DNA from: Eledone cirrhosa
Lineage: Eukaryota
NCBI GenBank assembly: GCA_964016885.1
Contig: OZ024764.1
Span: forward strand, 25,730,001 to 25,794,000
DNA length: 64,000 nucleotides
Direction of reading: 5' to 3'
The notes under the pieces were generated by a model. The model was not told where the DNA came from. It saw only the letters and a program-made list of their open reading frames with translations, and did not search any database. The translations under genes and the position numbers were made by a program. Below, in pieces: positions 1-58,070 of this stretch (the stretch's first letter is position 1; each line of letters starts with the position of its first letter).

Positions 1-2410
1 CGACGGTCTGCCGCGCCTCTCGGACGCGGAGGCGAAGTCCTGCGAAAGGACGATTTCAGCTGCTGAGATAGGGGCGGCGCTGAGCCAATGCGGCAAACGC
101 AAATCCCCGGGTCTCGATGGTCTACCATACGAGCTATATGTAGCGATGCCGGACTTGTTCTCCGATATCCTCGAAGCGGTCTACTGCAACTGGCAGCAGA
201 ACGGGAGAATTCCCAGTTCTGTGACCAAGGGCGTAGTTACGCTGGTGAGGAAGGATGAGAACAAGGGGGATGACATAAGTAACTTCAGGCCCATAACTCT
301 GCTAAATACAGAGTTAAAGATTTTGGCCAAGGTGTTAGCGAAGAGGTTGGCGCTTGTCGTTGGAAACCTGGTGGGAGAAGCGCAGACATGCGCAATCCCG
401 TCCAGGTCCATTCACGACAATCTCCACCTTATGCGATACATCATAGAGAGGGTAGGGAATGAACCCGGCTTTGGTGGGGCCCTGATCAACTTGGATCAAT
501 CTAAAGCTTTCGATAGGGTTGACCATCGTTACCTGGATGCGGTGCTCGCGGCGGCAGGCTTCGGACCCGTTTTCAGGGGTTGGATTGCTGCGATGCACAG
601 CAGCAACGTCTGCTCAAGGGTCAAGGTGAACGGCCACCTCTCGGAGCCGTTCCAAATCATGCGATCCATCCGACAGGGATGCCCTCTCTCCTCCCTACTG
701 TATGTGCTGGCTCTTGAGCCACTACTGCGGAAGTTGGAGCGGTTGCAGGGCATCCCTTTGGAACCGGGATTGCAGAAAGCGGCGTCGGCCTACGCCGATG
801 ACGTGACAGTAATGGTGTCGAAAACCTCGCAAATCGGTGAGATCGGCACCTTACTGGAGGAATATGAAAGGTTTACAGGAGCCAAGCTGAACCGGGACAA
901 GTCCGTCGGTTTGCAACTCGGAACATGGAGAGGCAAACCGATGCCCTCCAACGACGTCGTCGGACGCTGGACGGAGGGCCCGGTGAAGCTGCTTGGGGTC
1001 TGGTTCGGACCAGACCTCCAGGTGGAGAAAAACTGGAACGAGGTAACGGCCAGGGTGTTTGCACTCACCCAGAAGTGGGCCCAGTGCAAACTATCCCTGA
1101 AAGGTCGAGCGGAGGTGGCGAATACTTATATAGCATCCGTCATCTACTACCGCTTGACCGTCGTGCCTTGCCCAGTGAAAAGACTCGCCAAAATGGAGTG
1201 CGCGCTGTTCCAATTTCTTTGGAACAAGCGGACCCCTTTGGTGAGGAGATCCATCTGCTGTCAACACCCTTCGAAAGGAGGGCTGGGGATGCCGTGGCTA
1301 CAGATGCGTAAACACGCATTAAGGCTACGGCACCTCCAGGTATTCCTCACCGGTCAACCGGTGTGGGCCCCGTTTGTGAGGCGAGCCTTTCCCAGACTCG
1401 TCTCGCTCACCGAGCTGCAATCGTGGGTCAAGCAAAGACCGAGAAAAGTGGGCGACTGGCACATTGAATGTGCCCAGGCGCTCACGGCCCTCTGGAAAGC
1501 GGACCCGGCAATCAGTGGAGACTCCACCTCGACATTCTATAGAGGGTTGGTACGCAGCAGGTGCGACGATGCTCTCGGAGAAGCTCTAGGCATGGAGGAA
1601 GATGAACTGGCCAGTCTGTTCGGTAGGACGTTTGGCCCTGGACCGATGGACAACTTCCAAAAGTCCCTGGCTTGGCAGTGCTACCGAGGGGCTCTACCCG
1701 TTCGAGACAAGCTCCACGGGCATGGGAGCCTGGGTAGAGATCCTTTGAATAAGATCTGTCCGAGATGCGTGCATGATGACGAAACCGTTGCGCACGCATT
1801 CGTACACTGCCCAGGCATTGCTGACCTGTGGGGCTATGTGGAACGACTACTGTCGAGGGTGGGACCAATCCGGTTGACCACCGAGTCCATTGTCACGATC
1901 AAACCGCCTCCCCCTTTCAAAAACGAAGGAGAGGCGGTTTTTCTCTGTGTGGTAGCCATGGCTAAAGAAGTTGTATGGTGGACGAGGCTGAAAGGGCTGA
2001 GGTCAGACACCTTTCTCTCCGGCCAACAACTGGTCCCCTTTTTCAAATACCATTTTAAAAGAAGGATCAGAATGGAGAGAGAGGTGCTCTACCCCAGCAA
2101 GTTTTATGAAAGGTGGGTGAAAGTAGGGAGAATGGCCAGAGTGAATGGGTCTTCTCTCTATATCAGCCTGTAGGTGAAAGAAGAGGAAAAAGAAGAGACG
2201 AGGGAAGCACCTACTCTTTGTGCTCCTGAGGAGAAGGGTTACACATTTTTTCCGGGGTGTGTGCGACCCATGTTAATTCCCCCTCCCTATTGAGGACTTC
2301 GTTTGTTGTTGTTATTTCATTGTTATATTTTTGTACTCGTTAATTATATGTAAACTTCCCCCCTTGTATCTGTCCCTACCTTTTGTGCCCTAGTGGCAAA
2401 TAAAGAAACC
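1..2410 (+). mobile_element. Tx1/L1-clade non-LTR retrotransposon, copy 1 (3' part; 5' end outside the window)
   Basis: Open frame to TAG at 2173 with RT motifs (NFRPITLLN, LDQSKAFDRV, RQGCPLS, YADD) and a C-terminal CCHC finger (CPRC..ETVAHAFVHC). 3' UTR has AATAAA near 2399, then joins the 72-bp satellite. Confidence 0.93.
146..2173 (+). CDS. LINE ORF2 reverse transcriptase plus C-terminal zinc finger (partial; frame is open upstream of 146)
   Basis: 675-aa ORF in the supplied track with canonical non-LTR RT motifs. Confidence 0.92.
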   Translation: MPDLFSDILEAVYCNWQQNGRIPSSVTKGVVTLVRKDENKGDDISNFRPITLLNTELKILAKVLAKRLALVVGNLVGEAQTCAIPSRSIHDNLHLMRYIIERVGNEPGFGGALINLDQSKAFDRVDHRYLDAVLAAAGFGPVFRGWIAAMHSSNVCSRVKVNGHLSEPFQIMRSIRQGCPLSSLLYVLALEPLLRKLERLQGIPLEPGLQKAASAYADDVTVMVSKTSQIGEIGTLLEEYERFTGAKLNRDKSVGLQLGTWRGKPMPSNDVVGRWTEGPVKLLGVWFGPDLQVEKNWNEVTARVFALTQKWAQCKLSLKGRAEVANTYIASVIYYRLTVVPCPVKRLAKMECALFQFLWNKRTPLVRRSICCQHPSKGGLGMPWLQMRKHALRLRHLQVFLTGQPVWAPFVRRAFPRLVSLTELQSWVKQRPRKVGDWHIECAQALTALWKADPAISGDSTSTFYRGLVRSRCDDALGEALGMEEDELASLFGRTFGPGPMDNFQKSLAWQCYRGALPVRDKLHGHGSLGRDPLNKICPRCVHDDETVAHAFVHCPGIADLWGYVERLLSRVGPIRLTTESIVTIKPPPPFKNEGEAVFLCVVAMAKEVVWWTRLKGLRSDTFLSGQQLVPFFKYHFKRRIRMEREVLYPSKFYERWVKVGRMARVNGSSLYISL

Positions 2411-2691
2411 ACTCTATATATACTATTGTATTTTCACAGTAAAGGCTTTACCTCACCTAATACCTCACATAACATTTACATTACTCTATATATACTATTG
2501 TATTTTCACAGTAAAGGCTTTACCTCACATAATATCTCACATAACATTTACATTACTCTATATATACTATTGTATTTTCACAGTAAAGGCTTTACCTCAC
2601 GTAATACCTCACATAACATTTACATTACTCTATATATACTATTGTATTTTCACAATAAAGGCTTTACCTCACATAATATCTCACATAACAT
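2411..2691. repeat. 72-bp minisatellite, about 4 copies
   Basis: Unit ACTCTATATATACTATTGTATTTTCACAGTAAAGGCTTTACCTCAC(C/A/G)TAATA(C/T)CTCACATAACATTTACATT starts at 2411, 2483, 2555 and 2627. Confidence 0.95.
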
Positions 2692-2900
2692 CTCGTATAC
2701 GAGAGACGTGTGTTGACGTGTGTGAACAAGCTCGGCTACCGAGTCGGATTTACTTACTCAAAAGTGAGTTTTGATTAATTTTTTATACTGTAATATACGT
2801 TAACCCCCTGCCTTGGTCGTCAAACTTTGAGTTTATTTATTTTCGCCCCTTTTTGGGGCGAATTTTCCAGTTAAAAACTTATTGCGGCAAACTAATAGAA

Positions 2901-4634
2901 ATGGACGGAATTTTCACATCTCATCCTAACGTGAAAGCCACGCCCCCTAAGAAAGGTGATACAGAGAAGCTAGAAGCACAAGGCTCTAAGTCTTCCCTCC
3001 TGACTTCTGCAAAAGAAACATGGAACACGGAATTAAAATAAAAATTTGTAAAAATGGGTGAAAACCCAGAAAGTCACATAAACGCAGACAAAAACAACAA
3101 CGACAATAACAGCAATAGTCACAACACCAACCAAGGAAAAAATAACGATAACACCAAACAAAGCGAACCCACTACTGGTGCCTCCTTTGCACAGGCGGTC
3201 CGGAAAACACAAACCTGCAAGCAACTGGACATTACAACTCTGAGAGAAAAGATGAAGGAAGCGAAACAGTATGTAACTTTCAAAGAAGGAGGAGACTTCA
3301 CAATCACCTCCCCACAAGAAATCAAAAGAGACACGACGCTAAGAACGATATCTTTCAGAACAATTTCCAACATAACAAGGAAACCAACTCAATTATCCCA
3401 AAAAGAGATTGAGCTGGTCCTAAAACGTGTGTGGGGTGATATATCGTTCATACAAAAAGGGCCACTCTATGGGAATATAACGGTCCTAATGAAGGATCAA
3501 TTGACGGCCAGGAAATACTCTGTGGCGCCAATTGTTTCCAAGCTACATACATTTTTCCCCACATATTTAGGGAAAAGAACGCAGAAAATAAGGGTCTCCG
3601 GAATCCGTTCAAATGCATGCATTTCCTGGGTACTAACAGGATTTTTAGAACACGAGGACGGAATCCTCTCAGTAGGAGAAGTCACCACAGACGTTTTCGG
3701 CGGTTTGAGCGTGGAGGTTCTGGTCCAAATGAGACCAGAACGAATAGCTAGAATACCACAGAGGGTGTCCCTCGATGGAGAAACATTTATATACATTTCA
3801 GCCGAGGGTAGGAGGCCCATATGTTACTACTGTTCAAGCAGGGGTCATCTAAGGGCTGCTTGTCCTCAATTGACAAAAAAAAAGGCTCTTTTGCCTACAC
3901 CCCACACACCACCACCACCACCACCACCACCACCACGGAAAAATAACACAAGACACGGCCCCACCCAAAACAACTCCCAAAACACACTCAAACACAACAA
4001 AACCCAAAAATACACCACTACCCGACAGCACGGACGAGGACCCAGCTGAAACGGCACCTAGTGACGAAGAGGGGGGAGAGCCTTCCAACCTGTAAAAAGA
4101 AAAAAAAGAAAGCACCATTCGAACATAAACGAAACAAACACACAACCACCAACAAAAACAAAACAAACAGAACAAACAAAATCCGCCCCACCCCAAAACA
4201 TAACACATACAACAAAACGTAAGCACACACAAGAACAACAAACAAACACAACACAAATAAAACAGTATACATACATTAACACAAATAACAAAGAACTAGT
4301 AAAAACAATACACAAAGACCCTTCGGTGGAAACTGAAGGGCAATTCTTTGCAAGCGCGGCCAACAAACCGCATTTAAAAATGATAAGACTCCCAATGGAC
4401 ACCTATGCACAACTAAGAGAGAACTTTCCTGAGGACGTGGGGAAAACATGTACTCGACCCTATAACCGCGTCCTCTTGAAACGTTTCCCCACCCACACCT
4501 CACCAAACACCCCCACTCCACCACAGAACAACACCCCCACCAAACAACCCCTCCAATACGCCCATGGATATTGTGCAACCTGCTCCACAGGAGCCGAACA
4601 GGTAGGTCCTTCCTCTTTTAACCAACATGGCTGA
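2901..4634 (+). pseudogene. Tx1 ORF1 (CCHC zinc knuckle), disrupted
   Basis: ATG at 2901, in-frame TAA at 3039-3041 and probable frameshifts in low-complexity tracts near 3935 and 4075. Terminal TGA at 4632-4634 overlaps the ORF2 ATG at 4627. Confidence 0.75.
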
Positions 4635-7489
4635 TATAAGAGTTGGGTGTCTGAATGTACGTGGCCTGGGACTGTCTTGGAAACAAGGCAAACTTTTAAA
4701 CGATCTCAGGTCGCATAGAATGGATGTAATGGCTATTTGCGAGTCCAGGATCAGCAGCGAGCACCAACTGGCGCCCCTCTTCGACGACTTTGAGATCTTC
4801 GCATCTCTCTGTCAACCGGGGGGTGGGGGTGGAGTTGTCGTTCTGCTGTGAAAACACCTGGGCCTCGCCATACAGAAGGTGCACCTGGACCCGGAGGATC
4901 GACTGGTGGTTTTAGACGTCGGCAGTAGTGAAAGTGGAGCCCTTAGACTAATAGCTGTGTACGCCCCTTTTTGGGCAGCACGGCCGGAATACTTCCAACG
5001 TCTGGAAACTTTTCTGGGAACGTCCCGCTCCTTGCTTTTAGTGGGGGACTGGAATGGTATCCTGGATGCACGTTGGGACTATGTAGGGGCATGTGCCAAT
5101 AGAGGGGGGTGTAAAAGCCTCAAAAGGTTAATCGACCGATTTGACCTGGCCGATAGATATCGACTAGATTTTCCGACTGTACCACTATGGACGTGGACCA
5201 ATCGCAGCGGAACGTCTAGATCGTACCTAGATAGGGTCCTAGTTAGAGAGAAGGATAGGGACACATTTAGCTGTCCAAAAATGTTCATGGTTGACTATTC
5301 CGATCACAAGTTAGTGACCTGCATAGCCAACCTTGATAGAACCCATAGACAGGGACCCGGTTACTGGAAGCTGAACTTGTCCTTACCGAGAAGCAAAGCT
5401 TACAGTAAACGGATTAGCACGTTAGTTAAGCAGAGTTTGACAGGGGCAATTGTCAACAACAGGTGGTGGAGCTCTCTTAAGAGAGCAATTAGAATAGAAT
5501 CGATAGGTTTTAGTCAGGAATTAGCAAGGGATAGGAACAAGACGGAAAGGGAATTAGTAGATAGAGTAGAAGAGGCGATTAGGAGTGACAATGTAGCCGG
5601 CGTGCTGGCATCAAGAATGGCCTTAGACCAGTTCTTTGAGGTGAAGCATGAAGGCTGCGTTGTCAGAAATAAAATACGTGCTCTGGGTAATGAGGGAGCC
5701 AAAGCTGTGAGCTGGGCCAGAGTGACAGAGGCAAAAAGTGGGAACAAGTCCACGATTCGCTCTTTGAAGGACCAGGATTGGCGTGTGATCCTTGAACCTG
5801 GGCAGATGTGTGCGGCCTTTCAGCGGCACTTTGCACGACTGTTCTAGAGGGGCGGCGCGCCGTGTGAGACTATGGATTTCGATCCATACCTTGACGGTCT
5901 GCCTCGCCTCTCGGACGCAGAGGCGAAGTCCTGCGAAAGGACGATTTCAGCTGCTGAGATAGGGGTGGCGCTGACCCAATGCGGCAAACGCAAATCCCCG
6001 GGTCTCGATGGTCTACCATACGAGCTATATGTAGTGATGCCGGACTTGTTCTCCGATATCCTCGAAGCGGTCTACTGCAAATGGCAGCAGAACGGGAGAA
6101 TTCCCAGTTCTGTGACCAAGGGCGTAGTTACGCTGGTGAGAAAGGATGAGAACAAGGGGGATGACATAAGTAACTTCAGGCCCATAACTCTGCTAAATAC
6201 AGAGTTAAAGATTTTGGCCAAGGTGTTAGCGAAGAGGTTGGCGCTTGTCGTCGGAAACCTGGTGGGAGAAGCGCAGACATGCGCAATCCCGTCCAGGTCC
6301 ATTCACGACAATCTCCACCTTATGCGATACACCATAGAGAGGGTAAGGAATGAACCCGGCTTTGGTGGGGCCCTGATCAACTTGGATCAATCTAAAGCTT
6401 TCGATAAGGTTGACCATCGTTACCTGGATGCGGTGCTCGCGGCGGCAGGCTTCGGACCCGTTTTCAGGGGTTGGATTGCTGCGATGCACAGCAGCAACGT
6501 CTGCTCAAGGGTCAAGGTGAACGGCCACCTCTCGGAGCCGTTCCAAATCATGCGATCCATCCGACAGGGATGCCCTCTCTCCTCCCGTCTGTATGTGTTG
6601 GCTCTTGAGCCACTACTGCGGAAGTTGGAGTGGTTGCAGGGCATCCCTTTGGAACCGGGATTGCAGAAAGCGGCGTCGGCCTACGCCGATGACGTGACAG
6701 TAATGGTGTCGAAAACCTCGCAAATCGGTGAGATCGGCACCTTACTGGAGGAATATGAAAGGTTTACAGGAGCCAAGCTGAACCGGGACAAGTCCGTCGG
6801 TTTGCAACTCGGAACATGGAGAGGCAAACCGATGCCCTCCAATGACGTCGTCGGACGCTGGACGGAGGGACCGGTGAAGCTGCTTGGGGTCTGGTTCGGA
6901 CCAGACCTCCAGGTGGAGAAAAACTGGAACGAGGTAACGGCCAGGGTGTTTGCACTCACCCAGAGGTGGGCCCAGTGCAAACTATCCCTGAAAGGTCGAG
7001 CGGAGGTGGCGAATACTTATATAGCATCCGTCATCTACTACCGCTTGACCGTCGTGCCTTGCCCAGTGAAAAGACTCGCCAAAATGGAGTGCGCGCTGTT
7101 CCAATTTCTTTGGAACAAGCGGACCCCTTTGGTGAGGAGATCCATCTGCTGTCAACACCCTTCGAAAGGAGGGCTGGGGATTCCGTGGCTACAAATGCGT
7201 AAACACGCATTAAGGCTACGGCACCTCCAGGTATTCCTCACCGGTCAACCGGTGTGGGCCCCGTTTGTCTGGCGAGCCTTTCCCAGACTCGTCTCGCTCA
7301 CCGAGCTGCAATCCTGGGTCAGGCAAAGACCAAGAATTGTGGGCAACTGGCACATTGAATATGCCCAGGCGCTCACGGCCCTCTGGAAAGCGGACCCGGC
7401 AATCAGTGGAGACTCCACCTCGACATTCTATAGAGGGTTGGTACGCAGCAGGTGCGACGATGCTCTCGGAGAAGCTCTAGGCATGGAGG
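4627..7489 (+). pseudogene. Tx1 ORF2 (APE endonuclease plus RT) with two in-frame stops
   Basis: ORFs starting at 4627, 4879 and 5872 share one frame, broken by TGA 4849-4851 and TAG 5845-5847. Motifs LNVRGL, VGDWN, SYLDRV, SDH and YADD. Confidence 0.92.
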
Positions 7490-7583
7490 CTTTACCTCAT
7501 ATAATATCTCACATAACATTTACATTACTCTATATATACTATTGTATTTTCACAGTAAAGGCTTTACCTCACATAATATCTCA
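7487..7583. repeat. 72-bp minisatellite resumes (about 1.3 copies)
   Basis: Same unit as 2411-2691. Confidence 0.9.
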
Positions 7584-7814
7584 TGAATAACAGTGTTAAA
7601 ATAGAACGGAGTGGTTTCAGACATGCCCCCGAGACACGATACAACAATAATATCATCTTCTTCTTCCATCCATCCCGTACTACATACACCACATCCCTCT
7701 CCATCTACCCCCACCCCCTCTATCAACCCCTTTCCTCACTCCTCCAAACACTCTTTTTCCCACCTCGTTCTCCAGAGCTAATGTCATTTCAGTTTGATAG
7801 AGGTACGCAAACAC

Positions 7815-8480
7815 ACAGCTATAGAACTCACCTTTAACGTAGGTACCTCCCAAACAGCTATAGAACTCACCTTTAATGTAGGTACCTGCCAAACAGCTAT
7901 AGAACTCCCCTTTAACGTAGGTACCTCCCAAACAGCTATAGAACTCACCTTTAACGTAGGTACCTGCCAAACAGCTATAGAACTCACCTTTAACGTAGGT
8001 ACCTGCCAAACTGCTATAGAACTCACCTTTAACGTAGGTACCTGCCAAACAGCTATAGAACTCACCTTTAACGTAGGTACCTCCCAAACAGCTATAGAAC
8101 TCACCTTTAACGTAGGTACCTGCCAAACAGCTATAGAACTCACCTTTAACGTAGGTACCTGCCAAACAGCTATAGAACTCACCTTTAACGTAGGTACCTC
8201 CCAAACAGCTATAGAACTCACCTTTATCGTAGGTACCTGCCAAACAGCTATAGAACTCACCTTTAACGTAGGTACCTGCCAAACAGCTATAGAACTCCCC
8301 TTTAACGTAGGTACCTCCCAAACAGCTATAGAACTCACCTTTAACGTAGGTACCTGCCAAATAGCTATAGAACTCACCTTTAACGTAGGTACCTGCCAAA
8401 CAGCTATAGAACTCACCTTTATCGTAGGTACCTGCCAAACAGCTATAGAACTCACCTTTAACGTAGGTACCTGCCAAACA
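7815..8480 (-). repeat. 39-bp minisatellite, 17 copies, each made of an exon end plus a 5' splice site
   Basis: Minus-strand unit TGTTTGGCAGGTACCTACGTTAAAG|GTGAGTTCTATAGC, open in the exon's frame (CLAGTYVKGEFYS). Confidence 0.95.
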
Positions 8481-8584
8481 ACCATCCATTCTGTAGTCAT
8501 CACGACTTTTTGGAATACAAATAGGATTTATACATCCAGATAGAGGCAGCTTTTTCTCCAGTTTTGATAGACGAAAGCGCGTTC
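8456..8584 (-). CDS. Exon 5 of a secreted trypsin-like (S1) pseudo-protease gene
   Basis: Acceptor ttttcag|GA, donor AAAG|GTGAGT, 129 nt, phase 1/1. Encodes GTRFRLSKLEKKLPLSGCINPICIPKSRDDYRMDGCLAGTYVK, matching the S1 DIALLKL...PICLP region. Confidence 0.8.
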
Positions 8585-10420: not shown

Positions 10421-10564
10421 GGATGGAGGGGTCTGAGAGGTGGGTAGGGGAATGAGTGAATTGATATATACATACGTACACACTATATATATATATATAC
10501 ATTATATATACAATATATAAATATACACTTTCTACATTTTATATGCATTGCATATACACACTGA

Positions 10565-11086
10565 CCACCATCAATACCACCACCGTCACACCACCACATT
10601 ACACCACCAGAACCATCAACACCACCATCAAAACCACCACCACCACCACCACCATCAACACCACCACCACCACCTCCATCAACACCACCACCATCATCAA
10701 CACCACCACCACCACCACCATCAACACCACCATCAACACCATCAACACCACCACCATCAACACCACCATCAACACCATCAACACCACCACCATCAACACC
10801 ATCATCAACACCATCAACACCACCACCATCAACACCACCATCAACACCACCTCCATCAACACCACCACCACCATCAACACCACCATCAACACCACCACCA
10901 TCAACACCACCATCAACACCACCACCATCAACACCACCACCACCACCACCATCAACACCACCATCAACACCACCACCATCAACACCACCATCAACACCAC
11001 CACCATCAACACCACCACCACCATCAACACCACCATCAACACCACCACCATCAACACCACCATCAACACCATCAACACCACCACTA
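10565..11086. repeat. (CAC/CAT/CAA)n compound trinucleotide repeat, intronic
   Basis: Read directly. It begins about 10 nt downstream of the exon 4 donor on the minus strand. Confidence 0.95.
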
Positions 11087-11096
11087 CTAAACATAC

Positions 11097-11203
11097 CTTC
11101 TATTTCAACCTGAGTTGGATTCTCCTTAGCTGCCAATTCTTTCGCCTTCTCTATGGTAGTGTTGTATTTCTCTCCAAAATGGTAGCTGAATGGGTATTCT
11201 GGG
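11097..11203 (-). CDS. Exon 4 of the S1 pseudo-protease gene
   Basis: Acceptor tattacag|C, donor GAAG|GTATGT, 107 nt, phase 2/1. Encodes PEYPFSYHFGEKYNTTIEKAKELAAKENPTQVEIE. Phases fit both neighbouring exons. Confidence 0.78.
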
Positions 11204-13057: not shown

Positions 13058-13214
13058 ATGACAATGTCCTGTATGGACAACACTGTGTCTTCATCAATGA
13101 GGATTGCATTATTCATGAACGATATATCGTATGCTGCATAACCAAGCCATGGCTGACATCTTGTGGCGCTGTGAGTGCCGAAGACAAAGGCTTGCACGGG
13201 ATACCTACCACAAC
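13058..13214 (-). CDS. Exon 3 of the S1 pseudo-protease gene
   Basis: Acceptor tttgtag|GT, donor CAT|GTAAGT, 157 nt, phase 1/2. Encodes GCGRYPVQAFVFGTHSATRCQPWLGYAAYDISFMNNAILIDEDTVLSIQDIV, equivalent to CG..IVGG..PW..LI..VLTAAHC with His lost. Confidence 0.82.
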
Positions 13215-21659: not shown

Positions 21660-21980
21660 CTCTTGGGGGTGGTGCTGTGGTTGGTAGTGTGGTTGGTAGT
21701 GTGGTTGGTAGTGTAGTTGGTAAAGTGGTTGGTAGTGTAGTTGGTAAAGTGGTTGGTAGTGTGGTTGGTGCTGTGGTTGGTAGTGTGGTTGGTAAAGTGG
21801 TTGGTAGTGTGGTTGGTAAAGTGGTTGGTAGTGTGGTTGGTAGTGTGGTTGGTAGTGTGGTTGTTTCTGACTTATAACATTGTTTCACTTTATATTTCTT
21901 TTTAAACATACAGTCACCCTTATTTTCATAATCTGCTGAGCAGAAGGGACTAAAAGGTTTGTATCCATTATCAGAGCGAC
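21660..21980 (-). CDS. Exon 2 of the S1 pseudo-protease gene (Cys module plus TTLP mucin-like repeats)
   Basis: Strong acceptor ttcttctttttttctcacag|GT, donor AGAG|GTAAAT, 321 nt, phase 1/1. Encodes (C)RSDNGYKPFSPFCSADYENKGDCMFKKKYKVKQCYKSETTTLP(TTLP)n..PPPR. Confidence 0.85.
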
Positions 21981-25001: not shown

Positions 25002-25083
25002 AATCTGGCAAAGTTGCTTCGACAAAGATCGAAGACAGGCCAATACTGAAGACTAGAAGAGTATATGTTGTGTACGATGCCAT
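25002..25083 (-). CDS. First coding exon (signal peptide) of the S1 pseudo-protease gene
   Basis: ATG at 25083 in AGAATGG context. Encodes MASYTTYTLLVFSIGLSSIFVEA-TLPD. Perfect donor T|GTAAGT, phase 1, making TGT (Cys) with exon 2. Confidence 0.8.
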
Positions 25084-38104: not shown

Positions 38105-39052
38105 ATGGACTGCATGCAGGAAAAATGTGAAATCAGGAGTCAGCGAAACTGGTCAAAGATTGAACTAGCGGTTTTGATCAAGGGGTGGACCATGGCTGAT
38201 GGGTCTCCACCAAGCAAAAAGATGGCGGAGAACCTGAAGAGCCATGGGTTTCTGAGGACCCTGGCACAGATAGAGAGAAAGAGAAAGGAAATTGAGAAGG
38301 CGTATGTCCTCATAGCGCCTCATATGGCGATGCTAAGCCGTGTCCTCGGGGAGGAGAAAACCGAAGGGAGGGATGAGGAGAAGGAGAGGGAAAAGGAAGA
38401 GGAAAAAGAAAAAGAAAAGGAGGAGAGCACAAGCACGGACCTGAAAGAAAATGATATACCCTCCGCCACAGGCAGGGAGGGCAGGCCGGGCAACCAACAA
38501 GCTAAGGGCAAAGGTGAAAAGCGAAATCACCTTCCGAAGGAGAACCAAGCGCAGAGGGACCAGTGGACAACTGTTCAAAGAAAGAACAGAAAGCACCGAG
38601 ACACTGGGAGCAAAAAACCCCAAGTAATGTGCAAGTTTTTAAAGAACGGGACATGCTGGCATGGAGAGACAGGGATGGGATGCAGATTCGCCCACCCTAG
38701 GTCTCAAACGAACTATGCCCATCATACTCGCGCAACATGCCCCAGCCAAAGCCGAAATAAGCCGCTCCAGAAGTATGCTGATGTCGCGCGTGCTGCACCA
38801 ACAAGGAGAAGGCACGCACATGCCGACGAGATACAGATGGCAGCAGCAGATCAGAAAATTTTTTTAGTGATGGCAGAGAAGATTGTGGGACAGCTGACCT
38901 GGCTGCATCGTCTCCAGAGCCAGGGTCATCCACACCAGCACTCGAGACCACCGCAGTTAAGGGACCCAGAGTGGCCGCCGCTGACACCAGACCAGGTGTC
39001 ATACCGACAGCCATTACTGGCACCCCAAAAGTCACACCAGTGCTGCTGCTGA
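38105..39052 (+). CDS. LINE ORF1 (Myb/SANT-like N-terminus, charged linker, CCCH finger)
   Basis: First ATG after the CT tract at 38105. RNWSKIELAVLIKGW..RTLAQIERKRKEI and CKFLKNGTCWHGETGMGCRFAHP. Confidence 0.72.
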   Translation: MDCMQEKCEIRSQRNWSKIELAVLIKGWTMADGSPPSKKMAENLKSHGFLRTLAQIERKRKEIEKAYVLIAPHMAMLSRVLGEEKTEGRDEEKEREKEEEKEKEKEESTSTDLKENDIPSATGREGRPGNQQAKGKGEKRNHLPKENQAQRDQWTTVQRKNRKHRDTGSKKPQVMCKFLKNGTCWHGETGMGCRFAHPRSQTNYAHHTRATCPSQSRNKPLQKYADVARAAPTRRRHAHADEIQMAAADQKIFLVMAEKIVGQLTWLHRLQSQGHPHQHSRPPQLRDPEWPPLTPDQVSYRQPLLAPQKSHQCCC

Positions 39053-42009
39053 ATGTCAGGGGCCTGGTGAAACTCAGCAACATGAGTAAAATTTCCTACC
39101 TGGGAGACTTAGCCATAAGCAATCAAGCACTATGCATGGCACTAACCGAAACGCACCTGACAAGCAGTATAGCAGATGCAGAAATACATATACCGAAATA
39201 TACTGTATTTCGTTCGCACAGGAAGGAGAGAACTCATGGTGGGGTTGCTCTGTATATCCGTGAAGATGTCACACCAATTGTACTGTTGACACATTCAAAC
39301 TCAGTCTGTGACACACTGATAATACATATGAAGCAACTACAGACGGTAATATGTGTCACATATCGGCCGCCCGATGCCCCCAGTCATGAGGGTAAATTTG
39401 AGGATAGCCTAAGTAGGATAGAAGAGGTCCTTGACAAACTGGACCAGGGTCTCAACATCCTACTGCTGGGAGACTTCAACCTACCAAAGGTCAAATGGCC
39501 TGAGGGCCACCTCCTCCCTGGAATGACGTCAATAGAACAGAGACAGACGGAATCCCTGCTGGCCCTCACACACAGGTTGTTCATGGAGCAAGCAATACTC
39601 CTCCCAACAAGAGGCGAAAATGTCCTGGGCCTCTGTTTTACAAACAACGAAGTGCTCATCCACAATGTAAAGGTGACACCAACAATTCTCTCGGATCATA
39701 ACTTAGTAGAGCTAATGATATGTGGTCCAAGAGAACCAACAGAGACAAAACCACCAAGAAGCTCCGGGATGCTATCCAACCTTAACTTCTACAAGGCTAA
39801 CTGGAAAAAGATTAAGAGTGAAATCCGGAAGCAAACATGGAGTGAAAACATCGCCACACAAGACACTAACACACAATTTCAACACTTCATGACAACGATA
39901 CACACCATATGCAAAAAGTGTGTCCCGGAGAAAGAGGCAAACAAACACAAAAATCTTATTCCCAGAGATAGGAAAATCCTTATGAGACGTAGAACTAAAC
40001 TCTCAAACCAGTTGAATAGTCAACAAAACAAAAACAAGAAGGAATCCTATTTGAAACGTGCACTACTTGACATCGAGATTACATTCAAACTTTCACATGA
40101 GAATGAGAGGGCAAAGAAAGAGAACAGGGCCATAGAAAACATTAAAACAAACCCTAAGGCCTTCTTTAAATTTGCAAAAGAAACTGCCTCAGTACACTGC
40201 AAGATTGGACCACTCTTCCACAAGGACGGTTCATTAACCGAAAATCCCCAAGAGATATGTGAAATACTGAACGAACAGTACAAAAGTGTCTTCACATGTC
40301 CACTGAGGCACATGCAAATAACGAAGCCAGAGGAGTTCTTTGATGCCACACTACATCAAGAAATGGCAACCATCAACCACATAGACATAACGGAGGAGGA
40401 TGTGGTGTACGCCATTGATGAAATTAGAACAGACTCGGCTGTTGGACCTGATGGATTCCCAGCAGTTCTCCTAAAAATATGTAAGCGGGCCTTAGCAACT
40501 CCACTGAAGATGCTCTTCAGAAGCTCCTTGGCTAGCGGTGTACTACCCAGGGAGCTGAAAGAAGGCACAATATGCCCTATCCATAAAGGAGGTAGTAGAG
40601 CGGAGGCCAAGAACTATAGGCCAGTCTCCCTGACGTCGCATATCAGTAAGGTCATGGAGCGAGTCGTCAGAAAGAAACTAATCACTTTCCTCGAAGAAAA
40701 TGACCGCCTGACTAGCACGCAACATGGCTTCCGCCCAGGAAGAAGCTGCCTTACACAGCTGCTACATCACTACGACTGGCTACTGAGACAACTACTAGAC
40801 AGCTCACATGTAGACGTGATATATCTTGACTTTGCGAAGGCCTTTGACAAGGTCGACCACGGAATGATATGTCACAAACTACACGGACTCGGCATAACTG
40901 GAAAAGTAGGTGAGTGGCTGCATGGCTTCCTAAGGGACAGAAGCCAGGCAGTCGCAGCAAATGGGGCCCTCTCGAGGGAAACACCGATAACAAGTGGGGT
41001 GCCCCAGGGGACAGTCCTGGGACCACTACTGTTTTTGGTGGCTCTCTCGGACATGCCCTCTGTGGTGCATGCAACAACATCCCTCACTAGCTATGCTGAT
41101 GACACTAAGGTAGGACAGGCAATCAAAAACCCGGCTGACGCTGCCCTCTTACAGCAGGATCTGGATGCCATATACAGATGGGCGGAAGAAAACAACATGC
41201 AGTTTAATGCTGGCAAATTCCAAGCCCTACAATACAAACCTGCAAACACAAACACAAATATAGCGGAACACAGCTACACAGGACCAGGAGGGACCGATAT
41301 CCCCGTGTCAAAATCGATACGAGACCTGGGCATAGACATGAGCGATGATGCATCTTTTTCTTCACACATCATGAAGGTGGCGACAACATGTAGACGATTC
41401 GCTGGCTGGATCTTGAGGACTTTCCTTACAAGAGATCGAGACACCATGTTGACACTGTGGAGGACTTTTGTCCTAAGCCGCCTGGACTACTGCTCCCAGC
41501 TGTGGTCACCCCATAGTGTCAAACTAACCACGGAGCTTGAGGCAATCCAGCGAAGCTACACCAAGAGGATTGCCAAGATGAGGGAGACAAGCTACTGGGA
41601 GAGGCTAAAGGAACTGAACCTCTACTCCTTGGAGCGAAGACGGGACAGATACGCAGTGATCTACATGTGGAAAATCCTGGAGGGACTAGCACCAAACTTT
41701 GGCATTGGGAGCTGGACCAACCATCGAACAGGACGTCACTGTGTGGTGCCAAAGGTCCCGTCTTCCACATCTAGAATAAGGAGCAGGTATTGCAATAGCC
41801 TGGGATTCAAGGGCCCTCAACTCTTCAACAGGCTGCCGAGGCATCTGCGAGACTTGCATGACGTGGAGGTTGATGTCTTTAAGAAACATCTCGACACCTT
41901 GTTATCCAGGATCCCGGATGAGCCCACAGCAAGACACGAGGGAAACCTAAGGGCTGCAGCAACAAACTCCCTCCTACACCAGTGGCCAACCTATACAGGC
42001 TGGAGATAA
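38971..42009 (+). CDS. LINE ORF2, APE endonuclease plus reverse transcriptase (1012 aa, no stops; true start uncertain)
   Basis: [81 protein letters not shown]. Confidence 0.95.
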
Positions 42010-42083: not shown

Positions 42084-42468
<385 letters not shown>

Positions 42469-42872
42469 TATACATATACATCATCATCATCATCAACGTT
42501 TAACGTCCGTGTTCCACGCTTGCATGGGTTTGGACGGGGGTAGTCCCACTTGAGGCAAGAGTGATTGTCTTGCTCGCATAGGACTGTCTGGCAGGTTTTC
42601 TACAGTTGGATGCCCTTCCTAACACCAACCACATTTACAGTGTGGGTCTGGAAGGTTTTTACCGTGTTGCCTACACGGCCACATTACAGCGTGGACTGTG
42701 TGTTTTTTTGTCGTGACACCTACACGATCTCATTTGTTTCGGCCTGGCGCGGCACCAACATAACTTTACATAGAACGGGGTGGTGTGGATGGGGTGGGGG
42801 TGGTGGCGGGACGGGGTGTATTTTGTTAGAGATGCCTACTGGGCAGTGACATTGTCTTGGAGAGGTGTATAC

Positions 42873-42911
<39 letters not shown>

Positions 42912-42950
42912 CATATATATACATATATATATATATATACATATATATAC

Positions 42951-42981
<31 letters not shown>

Positions 42982-42982
42982 C

Positions 42983-43040
<58 letters not shown>

Positions 43041-43262
43041 GAAGGAACGATCGACTTTCGTCAAATCGGACCGAGGGAACAATGTTTCCGTTGGTCTTTC
43101 CAATTGCTAATACTATCTATCGGTCGCAACTTCAGGTAGAAGGAGCAACGTGAAATAGAGTGTCTTGCTCAAGGACATAACGCATCGCCTGGTCCAGGAA
43201 TCGAACTCACAACCTTACGATTGCGAATCCAATTCTCTAACCACTCAGCCACACGCCTTCAC

Positions 43263-43379
<117 letters not shown>

Positions 43380-43383
43380 TATG

Positions 43384-43667
<284 letters not shown>

Positions 43668-43675
43668 GATAAATC

Positions 43676-43715
<40 letters not shown>

Positions 43716-43749
43716 GATAAATCTACATATATATATATATATATATATA

Positions 43750-44922
43750 TAAGACGTAAAATAAGAAAATATTTTTTTTTTTAATTTTTAAAAATTTTTT
43801 TACTTACTTACTTAAATTTTCACTCCAACTAATTAGTTTCTGCAATGGGATAAAGACAGTTACGTAATCCAACTGTCGAGAATTCATTGCGTCATCAGGG
43901 AGTCTATTCTCAGCTGAGTCTCCAGACAATGCGCGGACACTGGCGGCTCATATAAAAATAATAATAATTCGGTAGATAGAACAGCTGGCGAGGACTGGAT
44001 TCTATGTACTGAAATTCTCACTGCTTCTAGTCAAATGGCCGATTCTAAAGAATCAATCACGTGACACAGAGGCTAGTTAGAAGGAATGGGATGGTAAGAT
44101 GACTGACGCCTACTAACACCCCAAAAAATTTTTGAAGTGGTTTTGGCAGGTTTGCTCGACAAATCAGTGATTTGGAGATAAATATAGATAATTTAATATA
44201 TCAACTAACATAAGCGCACAGATGCACGTCCATGCCACCAAATACACAGGTTATGTCATAGTACCTAGGTGGTTCAATGCAGGAGGATGCAGAACAATAA
44301 TATAAAAGACGTAAAATAAGAAAATATTTTTTTTTTAATTTTTAAAAAATTTTTTACTTACTTACTTAAATTTTCACTCCAACTAATTAGTTTCTGCAAT
44401 GGGATAAAGACAGTTACGTAATCCAACTGTCGAGAATTCATTGCGTCATCAGGGAGTCTATTCTCAGCTGAGTCTCCAGGCAATGCGCGGACACTGGCGG
44501 CTCATATAAAAATAATAATAATTCGGTAGATAGAACAGTTGGCGAGGACTGGATTCTATGTACTGAAATTCTCACTGCTTCTAGTCAAATGGCCGATTCT
44601 AAAGAATCAATCACGTGACACAGAGGCTAGTTAGAAGGAATGGGATGGTAAGATGACTGACGCCTACTAACACCCCAAAAAATTTTTGAAGTGGTTTTGG
44701 CAGGTTTGCTCGACAAATCAGTGATTTGGAGATAAATATAGATAATTTAATATATCAACTAACATAAGCGCACAGATGCACGTCCATGCCAGCAAATACA
44801 CAGGTTATGTCATAGTACCTAGGTGGTTCAATGCAGGAGGATGCAGAACAATAATATAAAAGACGTAAAATAAGAAAATATTTTTTTAAAAAATTTTTAA
44901 AAAATTTTTTACTTACTTAAAT
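43750..44922 (-). mobile_element. Retrozyme-like tandem dimer (2.1 x 554 bp); also at about 47883-49055 and 51963-53135
   Basis: AGACGTAAAATAAGAAAAT recurs at about 43752, 44307 and 44861. One hammerhead per monomer, no ORF. Confidence 0.78.
43822..43903 (-). ncRNA. Type I hammerhead ribozyme (copies at 44376-44457, 47955-48036, 48509-48590, 52035-52116, 52589-52670)
   Basis: ACTCC-CTGATGA-C-GCAATG..(GACAGTT..AACTGTC)..CATTGC-A-GAAA-CTAATTAG-TT^GGAGT. Confidence 0.83.
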
Positions 44923-45104
44923 CTACCAAAAGTTTACGGCAGTGTCCAATCCGTATGAAGAACTCAATGTAATCCGGATATCATGAAAAGAGGAGATGCA
45001 TTCAAAAACTACTTTCGGTGAAAAATAAACGGAAAACAGAGTCAAGATAAATTATTAAAAAAATAATGAATAAACAAAGAAACAGTTCCTTATATTAAAA
45101 AAAT

Positions 45105-45248
45105 TCATTATTTTACGATCGTTTCTAGGATATATATGTGTTAGAGTTGGTATGCTTATTCTATAGATCTATGTACAATATTTATACAAACTATCAGAGG
45201 GAATATACATACCTTCACATATATATATGCTGTCTTCAGAAATAATGA
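45105..45248 (-). ncRNA. Hammerhead with a stem II insertion of about 107 nt (copies at 49239-49382 -, 53319-53462 -, 57868-58011 +)
   Basis: TCATTATTT-CTGAAGA-[long hairpin]-GAAA-CGATCG-TA^AAATAATGA. 9-bp stem I, palindromic stem III. Confidence 0.75.
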
Positions 45249-46210
45249 TACTTGTTTATTGATAAGAACAAAGATTCAATACAATAGGTCTGTTTGGGAA
45301 CAGGTTTTGAATTGACCAATCAGGAGATAGTGAGGGTCAAGATAGTGATGTAGAATTTGGAGAACCTTAAATTATGGGTAGAGGAAGGGAGATTTCAGTT
45401 TTGGATGGAAAAGAGTATTATGAATGAAGGATTACTTTAGGGAAGAAGTAGGTCATATGTTGACCTCAGAAATAATATTATTTGTTCATTGAATAAAACC
45501 AACAAAGATCCAGTATAATAATGGATTACTTTAGGGAAGAAGTAGGTCATATGTTGACCTCAGAAATAATTTTATTTGTTCATTGAATAAAACCAACAAA
45601 GATCAAATATATTCTGTCTGTTTGGTAAGAGGTTTAGAATTAACCAATAGAAAGTTAATAATTGGCCAAATGGTAAAATAGTAGTAATTGAAACTTATTT
45701 TAGGGGTGAAACTAGGTCAGGTGGTCAGTAGAAGGTATACAAGCAAATGCTGTTATAAAATAGTAATGCCAATACAAATATCTAAGGTGACCAGAGTTTT
45801 AAGATAAGGATGTTAGTGAAAAAAATACATCTATGAAAAGGATATAAAATTAATTTAATTGATGGGTATATTTATATTGATAAAATTATACTAATACATA
45901 TAGATATGATAAATAAGAATTAGATGCAGTTGAAAAGTGCTGTTAAGGATGAGGGGAGATTAAAAGAATATAAAAATGATATATATATGTATATACATAT
46001 ATATATACCTACATATATATACATACATACACACACACATACACACATATATATATATTTATATATATATATATATATATACATACATACACATACACAC
46101 ACAAACATATACCCATATATATATATATACATATATATATACACGCATATACACATGTACATATACATACACACACACACACACAGACATATATATACAT
46201 ATATATATAC

Positions 46211-46243
<33 letters not shown>

Positions 46244-46247
46244 TATA

Positions 46248-46375
<128 letters not shown>

Positions 46376-46376
46376 C

Positions 46377-46555
<179 letters not shown>

Positions 46556-46959
46556 TATACATATACATCATCATCATCATCAACGTTTAACGTCCGTGTT
46601 CCACGCTTGCATGGGTTTGGACGGGGGTAGTCCCACTTGAGGCAAGAGTGATTGTCTTGCTCGCATAGGACTGTCTGGCAGGTTTTCTACAGTTGGATGC
46701 CCTTCCTAACACCAACCACATTTACAGTGTGGGTCTGGAAGGTTTTTACCGTGTTGCCTACACGGCCACATTACAGCGTGGACTGTGTGTTTTTTTGTCG
46801 TGACACCTACACGATCTCATTTGTTTCGGCCTGGCGCGGCACCAACATAACTTTACATAGAACGGGGTGGTGTGGATGGGGTGGGGGTGGTGGCGGGACG
46901 GGGTGTATTTTGTTAGAGATGCCTACTGGGCAGTGACATTGTCTTGGAGAGGTGTATAC

Positions 46960-46998
<39 letters not shown>

Positions 46999-47037
46999 CA
47001 TATATATACATATATATATATATATACATATATATAC

Positions 47038-47068
<31 letters not shown>

Positions 47069-47069
47069 C

Positions 47070-47127
<58 letters not shown>

Positions 47128-47349
47128 GAAGGAACGATCGACTTTCGTCAAATCGGACCGAGGGAACAATGTTTCCGTTGGTCTTTCCAATTGCTAATAC
47201 TATCTATCGGTCGCAACTTCAGGTAGAAGGAGCAACGTGAAATAGAGTGTCTTGCTCAAGGACATAACGCATCGCCTGGTCCAGGAATCGAACTCACAAC
47301 CTTACGATTGCGAATCCAATTCTCTAACCACTCAGCCACACGCCTTCAC

Positions 47350-47466
<117 letters not shown>

Positions 47467-47470
47467 TATG

Positions 47471-47752
<282 letters not shown>

Positions 47753-47760
47753 GATAAATC

Positions 47761-47796
<36 letters not shown>

Positions 47797-47804
47797 GATA
47801 AATC

Positions 47805-47848
<44 letters not shown>

Positions 47849-50344
47849 GATAAATCTACATATATATATATATATATATATATAAGACGTAAAATAAGAA
47901 AATATTTTTTTTTTTAATTTTTAAAAATTTTTTTACTTACTTACTTAAATTTTCACTCCAACTAATTAGTTTCTGCAATGGGATAAAGACAGTTACGTAA
48001 TCCAACTGTCGAGAATTCATTGCGTCATCAGGGAGTCTATTCTCAGCTGAGTCTCCAGACAATGCGCGGACACTGGCGGCTCATATAAAAATAATAATAA
48101 TTCGGTAGATAGAACAGCTGGCGAGGACTGGATTCTATGTACTGAAATTCTCACTGCTTCTAGTCAAATGGCCGATTCTAAAGAATCAATCACGTGACAC
48201 AGAGGCTAGTTAGAAGGAATGGGATGGTAAGATGACTGACGCCTACTAACACCCCAAAAAATTTTTGAAGTGGTTTTGGCAGGTTTGCTCGACAAATCAG
48301 TGATTTGGAGATAAATATAGATAATTTAATATATCAACTAACATAAGCGCACAGATGCACGTCCATGCCACCAAATACACAGGTTATGTCATAGTACCTA
48401 GGTGGTTCAATGCAGGAGGATGCAGAACAATAATATAAAAGACGTAAAATAAGAAAATATTTTTTTTTTAATTTTTAAAAAATTTTTTACTTACTTACTT
48501 AAATTTTCACTCCAACTAATTAGTTTCTGCAATGGGATAAAGACAGTTACGTAATCCAACTGTCGAGAATTCATTGCGTCATCAGGGAGTCTATTCTCAG
48601 CTGAGTCTCCAGGCAATGCGCGGACACTGGCGGCTCATATAAAAATAATAATAATTCGGTAGATAGAACAGTTGGCGAGGACTGGATTCTATGTACTGAA
48701 ATTCTCACTGCTTCTAGTCAAATGGCCGATTCTAAAGAATCAATCACGTGACACAGAGGCTAGTTAGAAGGAATGGGATGGTAAGATGACTGACGCCTAC
48801 TAACACCCCAAAAAATTTTTGAAGTGGTTTTGGCAGGTTTGCTCGACAAATCAGTGATTTGGAGATAAATATAGATAATTTAATATATCAACTAACATAA
48901 GCGCACAGATGCACGTCCATGCCAGCAAATACACAGGTTATGTCATAGTACCTAGGTGGTTCAATGCAGGAGGATGCAGAACAATAATATAAAAGACGTA
49001 AAATAAGAAAATATTTTTTTAAAAAATTTTTAAAAAATTTTTTACTTACTTAAATCTACCAAAAGTTTACGGCAGTGTCCAATCCGTATGAAGAACTCAA
49101 TGTAATCCGGATATCATGAAAAGAGGAGATGCATTCAAAAACTACTTTCGGTGAAAAATAAACGGAAAACAGAGTCAAGATAAATTATTAAAAAAATAAT
49201 GAATAAACAAAGAAACAGTTCCTTATATTAAAAAAAATTCATTATTTTACGATCGTTTCTAGGATATATATGTGTTAGAGTTGGTATGCTTATTCTATAG
49301 ATCTATGTACAATATTTATACAAACTATCAGAGGGAATATACATACCTTCACATATATATATGCTGTCTTCAGAAATAATGATACTTGTTTATTGATAAG
49401 AACAAAGATTCAATACAATAGGTCTGTTTGGGAACAGGTTTTGAATTGACCAATCAGGAGATAGTGAGGGTCAAGATAGTGATGTAGAATTTGGAGAACC
49501 TTAAATTATGGGTAGAGGAAGGGAGATTTCAGTTTTGGATGGAAAAGAGTATTATGAATGAAGGATTACTTTAGGGAAGAAGTAGGTCATATGTTGACCT
49601 CAGAAATAATATTATTTGTTCATTGAATAAAACCAACAAAGATCCAGTATAATAATGGATTACTTTAGGGAAGAAGTAGGTCATATGTTGACCTCAGAAA
49701 TAATTTTATTTGTTCATTGAATAAAACCAACAAAGATCAAATATATTCTGTCTGTTTGGTAAGAGGTTTAGAATTAACCAATAGAAAGTTAATAATTGGC
49801 CAAATGGTAAAATAGTAGTAATTGAAACTTATTTTAGGGGTGAAACTAGGTCAGGTGGTCAGTAGAAGGTATACAAGCAAATGCTGTTATAAAATAGTAA
49901 TGCCAATACAAATATCTAAGGTGACCAGAGTTTTAAGATAAGGATGTTAGTGAAAAAAATACATCTATGAAAAGGATATAAAATTAATTTAATTGATGGG
50001 TATATTTATATTGATAAAATTATACTAATACATATAGATATGATAAATAAGAATTAGATGCAGTTGAAAAGTGCTGTTAAGGATGAGGGGAGATTAAAAG
50101 AATATAAAAATGATATATATATGTATATACATATATATATACCTACATATATATACATACATACACACACACATACACACATATATATATATTTATATAT
50201 ATATATATATATATACATACATACACATACACACACAAACATATACCCATATATATATATATACATATATATATACACGCATATACACATGTACATATAC
50301 ATACACACACACACACACAGACATATATATACATATATATATAC

Positions 50345-50377
<33 letters not shown>

Positions 50378-50381
50378 TATA

Positions 50382-50677
<296 letters not shown>

Positions 50678-51081
50678 TATACATATACATCATCATCATC
50701 ATCAACGTTTAACGTCCGTGTTCCACGCTTGCATGGGTTTGGACGGGGGTAGTCCCACTTGAGGCAAGAGTGATTGTCTTGCTCGCATAGGACTGTCTGG
50801 CAGGTTTTCTACAGTTGGATGCCCTTCCTAACACCAACCACATTTACAGTGTGGGTCTGGAAGGTTTTTACCGTGTTGCCTACACGGCCACATTACAGCG
50901 TGGACTGTGTGTTTTTTTGTCGTGACACCTACACGATCTCATTTGTTTCGGCCTGGCGCGGCACCAACATAACTTTACATAGAACGGGGTGGTGTGGATG
51001 GGGTGGGGGTGGTGGCGGGACGGGGTGTATTTTGTTAGAGATGCCTACTGGGCAGTGACATTGTCTTGGAGAGGTGTATAC

Positions 51082-51120
<39 letters not shown>

Positions 51121-51159
51121 CATATATATACATATATATATATATATACATATATATAC

Positions 51160-51190
<31 letters not shown>

Positions 51191-51191
51191 C

Positions 51192-51249
<58 letters not shown>

Positions 51250-51471
51250 GAAGGAACGATCGACTTTCGTCAAATCGGACCGAGGGAACAATGTTTCCGT
51301 TGGTCTTTCCAATTGCTAATACTATCTATCGGTCGCAACTTCAGGTAGAAGGAGCAACGTGAAATAGAGTGTCTTGCTCAAGGACATAACGCATCGCCTG
51401 GTCCAGGAATCGAACTCACAACCTTACGATTGCGAATCCAATTCTCTAACCACTCAGCCACACGCCTTCAC

Positions 51472-51588
<117 letters not shown>

Positions 51589-51592
51589 TATG

Positions 51593-51876
<284 letters not shown>

Positions 51877-51884
51877 GATAAATC

Positions 51885-51928
<44 letters not shown>

Positions 51929-53259
51929 GATAAATCTACATATATATATATATATATATATATAAGACGTAAAATAAGAAAATATTTTTTTTTTTAATTT
52001 TTAAAAATTTTTTTACTTACTTACTTAAATTTTCACTCCAACTAATTAGTTTCTGCAATGGGATAAAGACAGTTACGTAATCCAACTGTCGAGAATTCAT
52101 TGCGTCATCAGGGAGTCTATTCTCAGCTGAGTCTCCAGACAATGCGCGGACACTGGCGGCTCATATAAAAATAATAATAATTCGGTAGATAGAACAGCTG
52201 GCGAGGACTGGATTCTATGTACTGAAATTCTCACTGCTTCTAGTCAAATGGCCGATTCTAAAGAATCAATCACGTGACACAGAGGCTAGTTAGAAGGAAT
52301 GGGATGGTAAGATGACTGACGCCTACTAACACCCCAAAAAATTTTTGAAGTGGTTTTGGCAGGTTTGCTCGACAAATCAGTGATTTGGAGATAAATATAG
52401 ATAATTTAATATATCAACTAACATAAGCGCACAGATGCACGTCCATGCCACCAAATACACAGGTTATGTCATAGTACCTAGGTGGTTCAATGCAGGAGGA
52501 TGCAGAACAATAATATAAAAGACGTAAAATAAGAAAATATTTTTTTTTTAATTTTTAAAAAATTTTTTACTTACTTACTTAAATTTTCACTCCAACTAAT
52601 TAGTTTCTGCAATGGGATAAAGACAGTTACGTAATCCAACTGTCGAGAATTCATTGCGTCATCAGGGAGTCTATTCTCAGCTGAGTCTCCAGGCAATGCG
52701 CGGACACTGGCGGCTCATATAAAAATAATAATAATTCGGTAGATAGAACAGTTGGCGAGGACTGGATTCTATGTACTGAAATTCTCACTGCTTCTAGTCA
52801 AATGGCCGATTCTAAAGAATCAATCACGTGACACAGAGGCTAGTTAGAAGGAATGGGATGGTAAGATGACTGACGCCTACTAACACCCCAAAAAATTTTT
52901 GAAGTGGTTTTGGCAGGTTTGCTCGACAAATCAGTGATTTGGAGATAAATATAGATAATTTAATATATCAACTAACATAAGCGCACAGATGCACGTCCAT
53001 GCCAGCAAATACACAGGTTATGTCATAGTACCTAGGTGGTTCAATGCAGGAGGATGCAGAACAATAATATAAAAGACGTAAAATAAGAAAATATTTTTTT
53101 AAAAAATTTTTAAAAAATTTTTTACTTACTTAAATCTACCAAAAGTTTACGGCAGTGTCCAATCCGTATGAAGAACTCAATGTAATCCGGATATCATGAA
53201 AAGAGGAGATGCATTCAAAAACTACTTTCGGTGAAAAATAAACGGAAAACAGAGTCAAG

Positions 53260-58070
<4,811 letters not shown>

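Follow-up and report, generated by a model that had tools for sequence, protein, structure and literature searches.

Minisatellites that span an exon-intron junction have been described in the human genes F7, CBS, 6-16, LMNB2 and PDGFA (PMC1557585). In the account given there, the authentic, most upstream donor is the only one used in F7, LMNB2 and PDGFA, and 6-16 and CBS use two others in addition to it, the CBS unit being 31 bp according to a reference title in the same source. The F7 donors are weak (CV 74) and lie in 5-9 identical copies 37 nt apart; killing the first donor activates the next one, exon skipping grows as the usable donor is shifted away, and perfect CAG/gtgagt pseudo-sites in minigenes of F7 drew approximately 70-90% of the splicing away from the first, weak site (PMC1557585). 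For two strong donors, data from HeLa cells show that the intron-proximal one gains in use beyond approximately 30 nt and reaches approximately 100% at 45 nt and above (PMC3413131). The mirages of the amphioxus genes Adh3, BflGb6 and BflGb9 appear not to disturb splicing, which RT-PCR suggested to be normal (PMC3087553). All the splicing precedents cited here are chordate, and our literature search found no mollusc case of a junction-spanning minisatellite.

We investigated a stretch of 64,000 nt from the cephalopod Eledone cirrhosa (C25:25730001-25794000, where C25 is contig OZ024764.1; hereafter the window), in one assembly in which the locus is present once. The window contains a junction-spanning minisatellite of the mirage or F7 type, the first unit of which lies over a real exon-intron boundary. 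Human and lancelet genes already provide examples of this architecture, and the Eledone cirrhosa array is an added case, which extends junction-spanning minisatellites to a cephalopod. It resembles the 37-bp VNTR of F7 intron 7, as published, in that unit 1 spans the exon end and the donor, in its identical downstream donors and nearly equal unit length, and in that the host is also a trypsin-fold gene. It differs from F7, where the 37-bp unit is out of frame, in having a 39-bp unit that is in frame, near-consensus donors and 17 copies. The donors here depart from the CAG/gtgagt 9-mer at position -3 only.

The unit of 6-16 is 12 nt long and adds four or eight residues in frame, and that of CBS shifts the frame; if these figures are right, 6-16 already represents an in-frame donor ladder, and the step here is larger and brings a Cys. 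Both the 6-16 (IFI6) and the CBS intron 13 minisatellites are similar to the present one in that the donor is reiterated, 15-25 times in the published description. The amphioxus mirages, as described, are likewise invertebrate tandem duplications of an exon-intron boundary, on either its 5' or its 3' side, in which the cryptic sites are intact and the units turn over, and they differ in their cephalochordate host.

Structure of the array and of its splice donors

We identified an array with a period of 39, 17.1 copies and 96% matches (Table 1). The mean pairwise identity among its units is 96.8%, and the array is thus young or homogenised. A 30-nt core of the unit gave 17 matches in the 3.0-Gb genome, all inside the array, and a control gave none; the repetition itself is not chance. 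As the initial annotation had proposed, the unit consists of the last 25 nt of exon 5 and the first 14 nt of its intron, and it reiterates the donor in exact 39-nt steps from 8455 down to 7831, yielding 17 donors spaced 13 codons apart. The splice signal is intact (GTGAGT) in 15 of the 17 units and changed to GGGAGT in the other two, again as first annotated.

All 17 donors have phase 1, and the expectation that a frame without stops crosses the array was borne out, the frame being open to 7682. Exon 6 also has phase 1, so that each of the 17 donors reads without a stop to the natural stop. Exon 5 would measure 168-753 nt at the reiterated donors 2-17, and more than 300 nt from donor 6 onward. 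Each donor step would insert 13 residues, with 14 Cys in total over the full array. The earlier suggestion that donor choice could insert 0-16 copies of a Cys-containing peptide holds in that n x 13 residues can be added without a frameshift, but the two dead donors leave at most 15 products. Similarly, a Cys is present in 14 of the 16 extra units, but exactly GEFYSCLAGTYVK is encoded by only six of them. The donor-2 insert ends in YDK, and a mass spectrometry search for GEFYSCLAGTYVK alone would therefore miss the likeliest extra isoform.

We additionally identified a second, weaker candidate site in every unit, which reads CAG/GTACCT in 12 units and GAG/GTACCT in five. Predicted RNA structure masking the donors did not exceed that of shuffled sequences (z -0.48), and predicted accessibility was 0.59 at donor 1 versus 0.33-0.56 at the other donors, a difference too weak for use. 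Internal cassette exons, or intron gain through the AG/GT within units, were considered and rejected, the pyrimidine tract not being good by eye.

Table 1. Features of the minisatellite and of the host gene, in window positions unless a contig position is given
Feature	Position	Strand	Remarks
Minisatellite, 17 x 39 bp	7815..8480	-	Unit 1 (8480-8442) straddles the exon 5/intron 5 boundary; unique to the locus
Donor 1 (AAG/GTGAGT)	8450..8458	-	Sole donor giving a homologue-like product without insert
Donors 2-17, with introns starting at 8416 down to 7831	7826..8419	-	14 intact, two GT>GG (8299, 7909)
Second, weaker donor-like site per unit (candidate)	7841..8473	-	15 nt upstream of the main donor, equal phase
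Coding exon 1, signal-peptide-like (by eye)	25002..25083	-	Gene model
Exon 2, small Cys-containing segment and Thr/Pro mucin-like stalk	21660..21980	-	Includes coding 12-bp repeat 21676-21863
Exon 3, trypsin-like domain begins	13058..13214	-	His57 position replaced; by homology
Exon 4	11097..11203	-	Gene model
Exon 5, 129 nt, phase 1-1, middle of trypsin-like domain	8456..8584	-	Donor-1 end; tblastn 55% to Argonauta proteins; model aligns to XP_014779244.1
Exon 6	C25:25726477-25726359 (outside window)	-	Phase 1
Exon 7	C25:25726025-25725849 (outside window)	-	Stop, then AATAAA
Intron 5, part within window beyond the array	1..7814	-	Two tandem antisense LINE copies

The host gene and its predicted product

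The array begins at the end of the fifth coding exon in a model of seven exons, in agreement with the numbering used in the initial annotation. All seven exons are open and have GT-AG ends, and the product read from donor 1 has 363 residues, no internal stop and 14 Cys; as judged from this model, the gene is intact. Searches of the genome with the last exon and with an Argonauta protein, with seven candidates scored in each, identified the locus here only. Exon 5 is flanked by introns of 2.5 and 12 kb, intron 5 measuring 11,978 nt from donor 1, and since its length is a multiple of three its skipping would also be in frame. Two open frames in intron 1, at 22299-22145 (with three Cys) and 22084-22026 on the minus strand, are exon-like and are missing from the homologue. 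We rejected both as extra exons, because their phases misfit and the model aligns without them.

The donor-1 product is 53% identical to XP_014779244.1 of Octopus bimaculoides over residues 1-354 (E 7e-122) and 47% identical to an Argonauta hians protein. The octopod S1-like proteins, comprising XP_014779244.1 and GAB1602655.1 and GAB1602657.1 of Argonauta hians, share with it a signal peptide, a Cys segment and a degenerate trypsin domain at identities of 47-53%, and XP_014779244.1 also has the Thr/Pro stalk; unlike the array-extended frame here, their protein models contain no repeat insert. None of 15 homologues matching the junction motif carries an insert at the junction; 12 of the 15 form one near-identical cluster from a more distant relative. 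These sequences come from gene models or from a distant paralogue, so that this absence is read from proteins and not from gene arrays.

A word-based protein search gave no match for exon 5 alone and no match for P0002 at longer lengths. An HMMER search with the last exon gave six matches; of the four inspected, two were genuine homologues, and P0001 and P0006 were rejected as unrelated repeats. An alignment search also recovered homologues. The homologues P0002 and P0003 match the Pfam family PF00089 (Trypsin; E 2.6e-4 and 1.8e-11, respectively), and the family profile matches enteropeptidase (1.8e-9), kallikreins and chymotrypsin; single exons alone gave no Pfam match to the trypsin domain. 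This homology places the predicted product within the peptidase S1 (trypsin) fold. The initial annotation had named a trypsin-fold domain as the host of the array, which is upheld as to the fold, but the S1 catalytic triad is missing, with the positions that we take to be His57, Asp102 and Ser195 aligning to Asp, Arg and Asn. The predicted product is a pseudoprotease that is secreted and bears a mucin-like stalk. A structure model of XP_014779244.1 was rejected as a proof of the fold, having a pLDDT of 43.9 and trypsin-fold PDB matches that were all at E>0.001.

In a profile alignment to enteropeptidase, the donor falls just past the strand equivalent to chymotrypsin 136-141, in a loop which we take to be the autolysis loop, and the strand preceding the donor is presumably that involved in the Cys136-Cys201 bond. 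Each insert would duplicate this strand together with its Cys. Such a surface loop might hold one or two units, but a Cys left unpaired would more probably be harmful in a secreted protein.

AlphaFold2 returned a regular beta structure for the repeats (mean pLDDT 64.7), for which a PDB match at E<=0.001 was not found. The same program yields confident beta-solenoids for random perfect repeats, as reported in PMC11795689, and a beta-solenoid formed by the repeats was rejected as this known artefact. Matches to DUF6618, LCI and other Pfam families in the repeat frame were also rejected, as summed weak repeat matches.

Proposed origin of the array and probable neutrality of its open frame

Of 12414 simulated tandem duplications over the six donors of the gene, 2829 (23%) were in frame and open, as were 666 of 2069 (32%) at the exon 5 donor. 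An in-frame open unit is about one chance in three to four, and not special. We identified six distinct unit variants, of which five are non-synonymous, two of these losing the Cys (absent from two units), and the sole synonymous variant is the one responsible for the two dead donors. The random expectation of 117 changes is 85 non-synonymous, 24 synonymous and eight stop, and the variants agree with it (P of at most one synonymous change 0.61; P of no stop 0.65), with six variants giving low power. Coding constraint on the inserted units was not found in this comparison, in which the five non-synonymous variants of six are as neutral and the power is low.

It is highly improbable that the array has been selected as a regulated choice of donor, which would add a varying number of Cys-bearing 13-mers and alter the binding or cross-linking of the pseudoprotease. 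The retention of frame and phase at every donor is consistent with such a choice, but in-frame openness is a one-in-three event and no coding constraint was found, with the Cys lost in two units. An insertion site in a loop, in a protein that has no catalytic site to lose, would also suit it, but an insert is absent from all 15 homologues that match the junction motif. As to the regular beta structure of the modelled repeats, solenoids are obtained for random repeats as well (PMC11795689), and no PDB entry matched at the threshold used.

The array unit starts with TGT and the sequence following the array begins with a similar motif, and these near-repeat bounds would fit an origin by slippage. 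A 39-nt segment with such ends (TGT at both, and the similar motif past the array) would have been duplicated by slippage, and the duplicated segment would then have expanded via unequal exchange. Local arrays with a period of at least 10 and at least four copies number 20 in 164 kb (approximately one per 8 kb), and three of these, besides the present array, lie within the gene. The gene is repeat-prone, as seen in a low-complexity array at 10564-11083 and in the coding 12-bp Thr/Pro repeat of exon 2. The low-complexity array begins 13 nt past the exon 4 donor.

Across the genome, a pattern of three donor-like sites gave 12,960 overlapping matches versus 4,395 for a control, which are not array counts. 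Six donor-like arrays among the 100 matches listed had no clear upstream coding exon by eye, and a second junction-spanning case was not found among those six. At L046:2570-5983 (C1:37421400 onward, plus strand), a 30-bp array that holds at least 97 donor-like sites begins shortly after a pyrimidine-rich, acceptor-like stretch, with no evident coding exon.

Donor use

We consider it likely that the locus represents a young minisatellite of the mirage or F7 type in an intact gene whose secreted trypsin-fold product is predicted to be non-catalytic, an unselected by-product in which donor 1 is dominant, with at most a minor leak to donors 2-3. This neutral reading is supported by the unit variants, which are as random, from the homologues, which are without an insert, and from the open frame, obtained in 23-32% of simulated duplications. 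Exon definition over exon 5 would favour the donor closest to its acceptor, and the remaining unit copies would be removed together with the intron. Donor 1 probably carries most of the splicing, since splicing in published arrays, as described, is confined to the first one to three donors. Splicing may leak downstream from donor 1, given that the donors come close to the consensus and follow each other at 39 nt, a distance associated with a downstream shift in mammalian data on strong duplicated donors; against an intron-proximal shift, donor 1 matches the others in strength, and exon 5 is internal between long introns and would be longer than 300 nt from donor 6 onward. Leaked products would evade nonsense-mediated decay; each unit would lengthen them by 13 residues, usually with one unpaired Cys among these, at the loop that follows the first strand of the second barrel.

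Simultaneous binding of U1 to 15 equal donors could instead spread splicing among them or shift it downstream, which would produce stable in-frame mRNAs at 39-nt steps and proteins that are mostly misfolded or retained, making the array a copy-number-dependent hypomorph. Taken together as one reading, we consider this unlikely. Strong duplicated donors prefer the intron-proximal site at 30-45 nt and above (PMC3413131), and the donors here are near-consensus, but the published data concern donor pairs in model substrates rather than arrays that follow an internal exon flanked by long introns. Perfect pseudo-sites compete in F7 and extra donors are used in 6-16 and CBS, but the arrays described in that source use at most three donors (PMC1557585). 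The array has no stop to trigger decay and no marked RNA structure over its donors, but the gene appears intact, with a donor-1 product that holds its 14 Cys. We think it very unlikely that the 15 in-frame donors are widely used, which would go beyond the three donors of described arrays and would generate a secreted pseudoprotease whose trypsin fold carries, as a loop, a variable and allele-dependent run of Cys-bearing 13-mers; donor choice alone would then have turned a minisatellite into tunable coding sequence. If such a wide ladder were true, it would constitute a direct path from an intronic repeat to a variable-length coding sequence.

Recognition of exon 5 could also be impaired, leading to in-frame skipping of its 129 nt or to read-through to the stop at 7682, or the copy could be little expressed and the array inconsequential. 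That F7 exon skipping increases as the usable donor moves off (PMC1557585), and that exon 5 is a multiple of three, would agree with impaired recognition, but donor 1 is intact and strong. The two near-identical LINE copies in intron 5 suggest weak constraint there, but the seven exons are open with GT-AG ends and this is the only locus found in the genome, and we regard this alternative as decidedly unlikely.

The locus provides a natural test of 5' splice-site choice, in which scanning or exon definition, as for F7, points to donor 1, and double occupancy by U1 points to downstream donors when strong donors stand at this spacing. Since all products are in frame, decay would not bias the isoform count, and the unit variants form partial barcodes for the donors.

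Neighbouring repeats and mobile elements

We additionally identified several repeats and elements around the gene. The LINE copies of intron 5 are in tandem, antisense and 98% identical, encode an endonuclease and a reverse transcriptase, and extend over approximately C25:25726680-25737490 (window -3320 to 7489). Each is bounded by a short motif that forms a 72-bp array at 2411-2691. A third copy near C25:25656100-25661200 has 72-bp and 44-bp arrays of this bounding motif at its flanks. These arrangements suggest a target-specific element, which we take to be Tx1-like.

Elsewhere in the window, a very AT-rich 113-bp repeat at 56499-57012 lacks any long open frame when read with the invertebrate mitochondrial code. 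A unit of approximately 4.1 kb is present three times at 42098-54638 with 98-99% identity, reflecting recent duplication or an assembly artefact. An open LINE frame of 1075 codons, with endonuclease and reverse transcriptase domains, occupies 38782-42006 on the plus strand.
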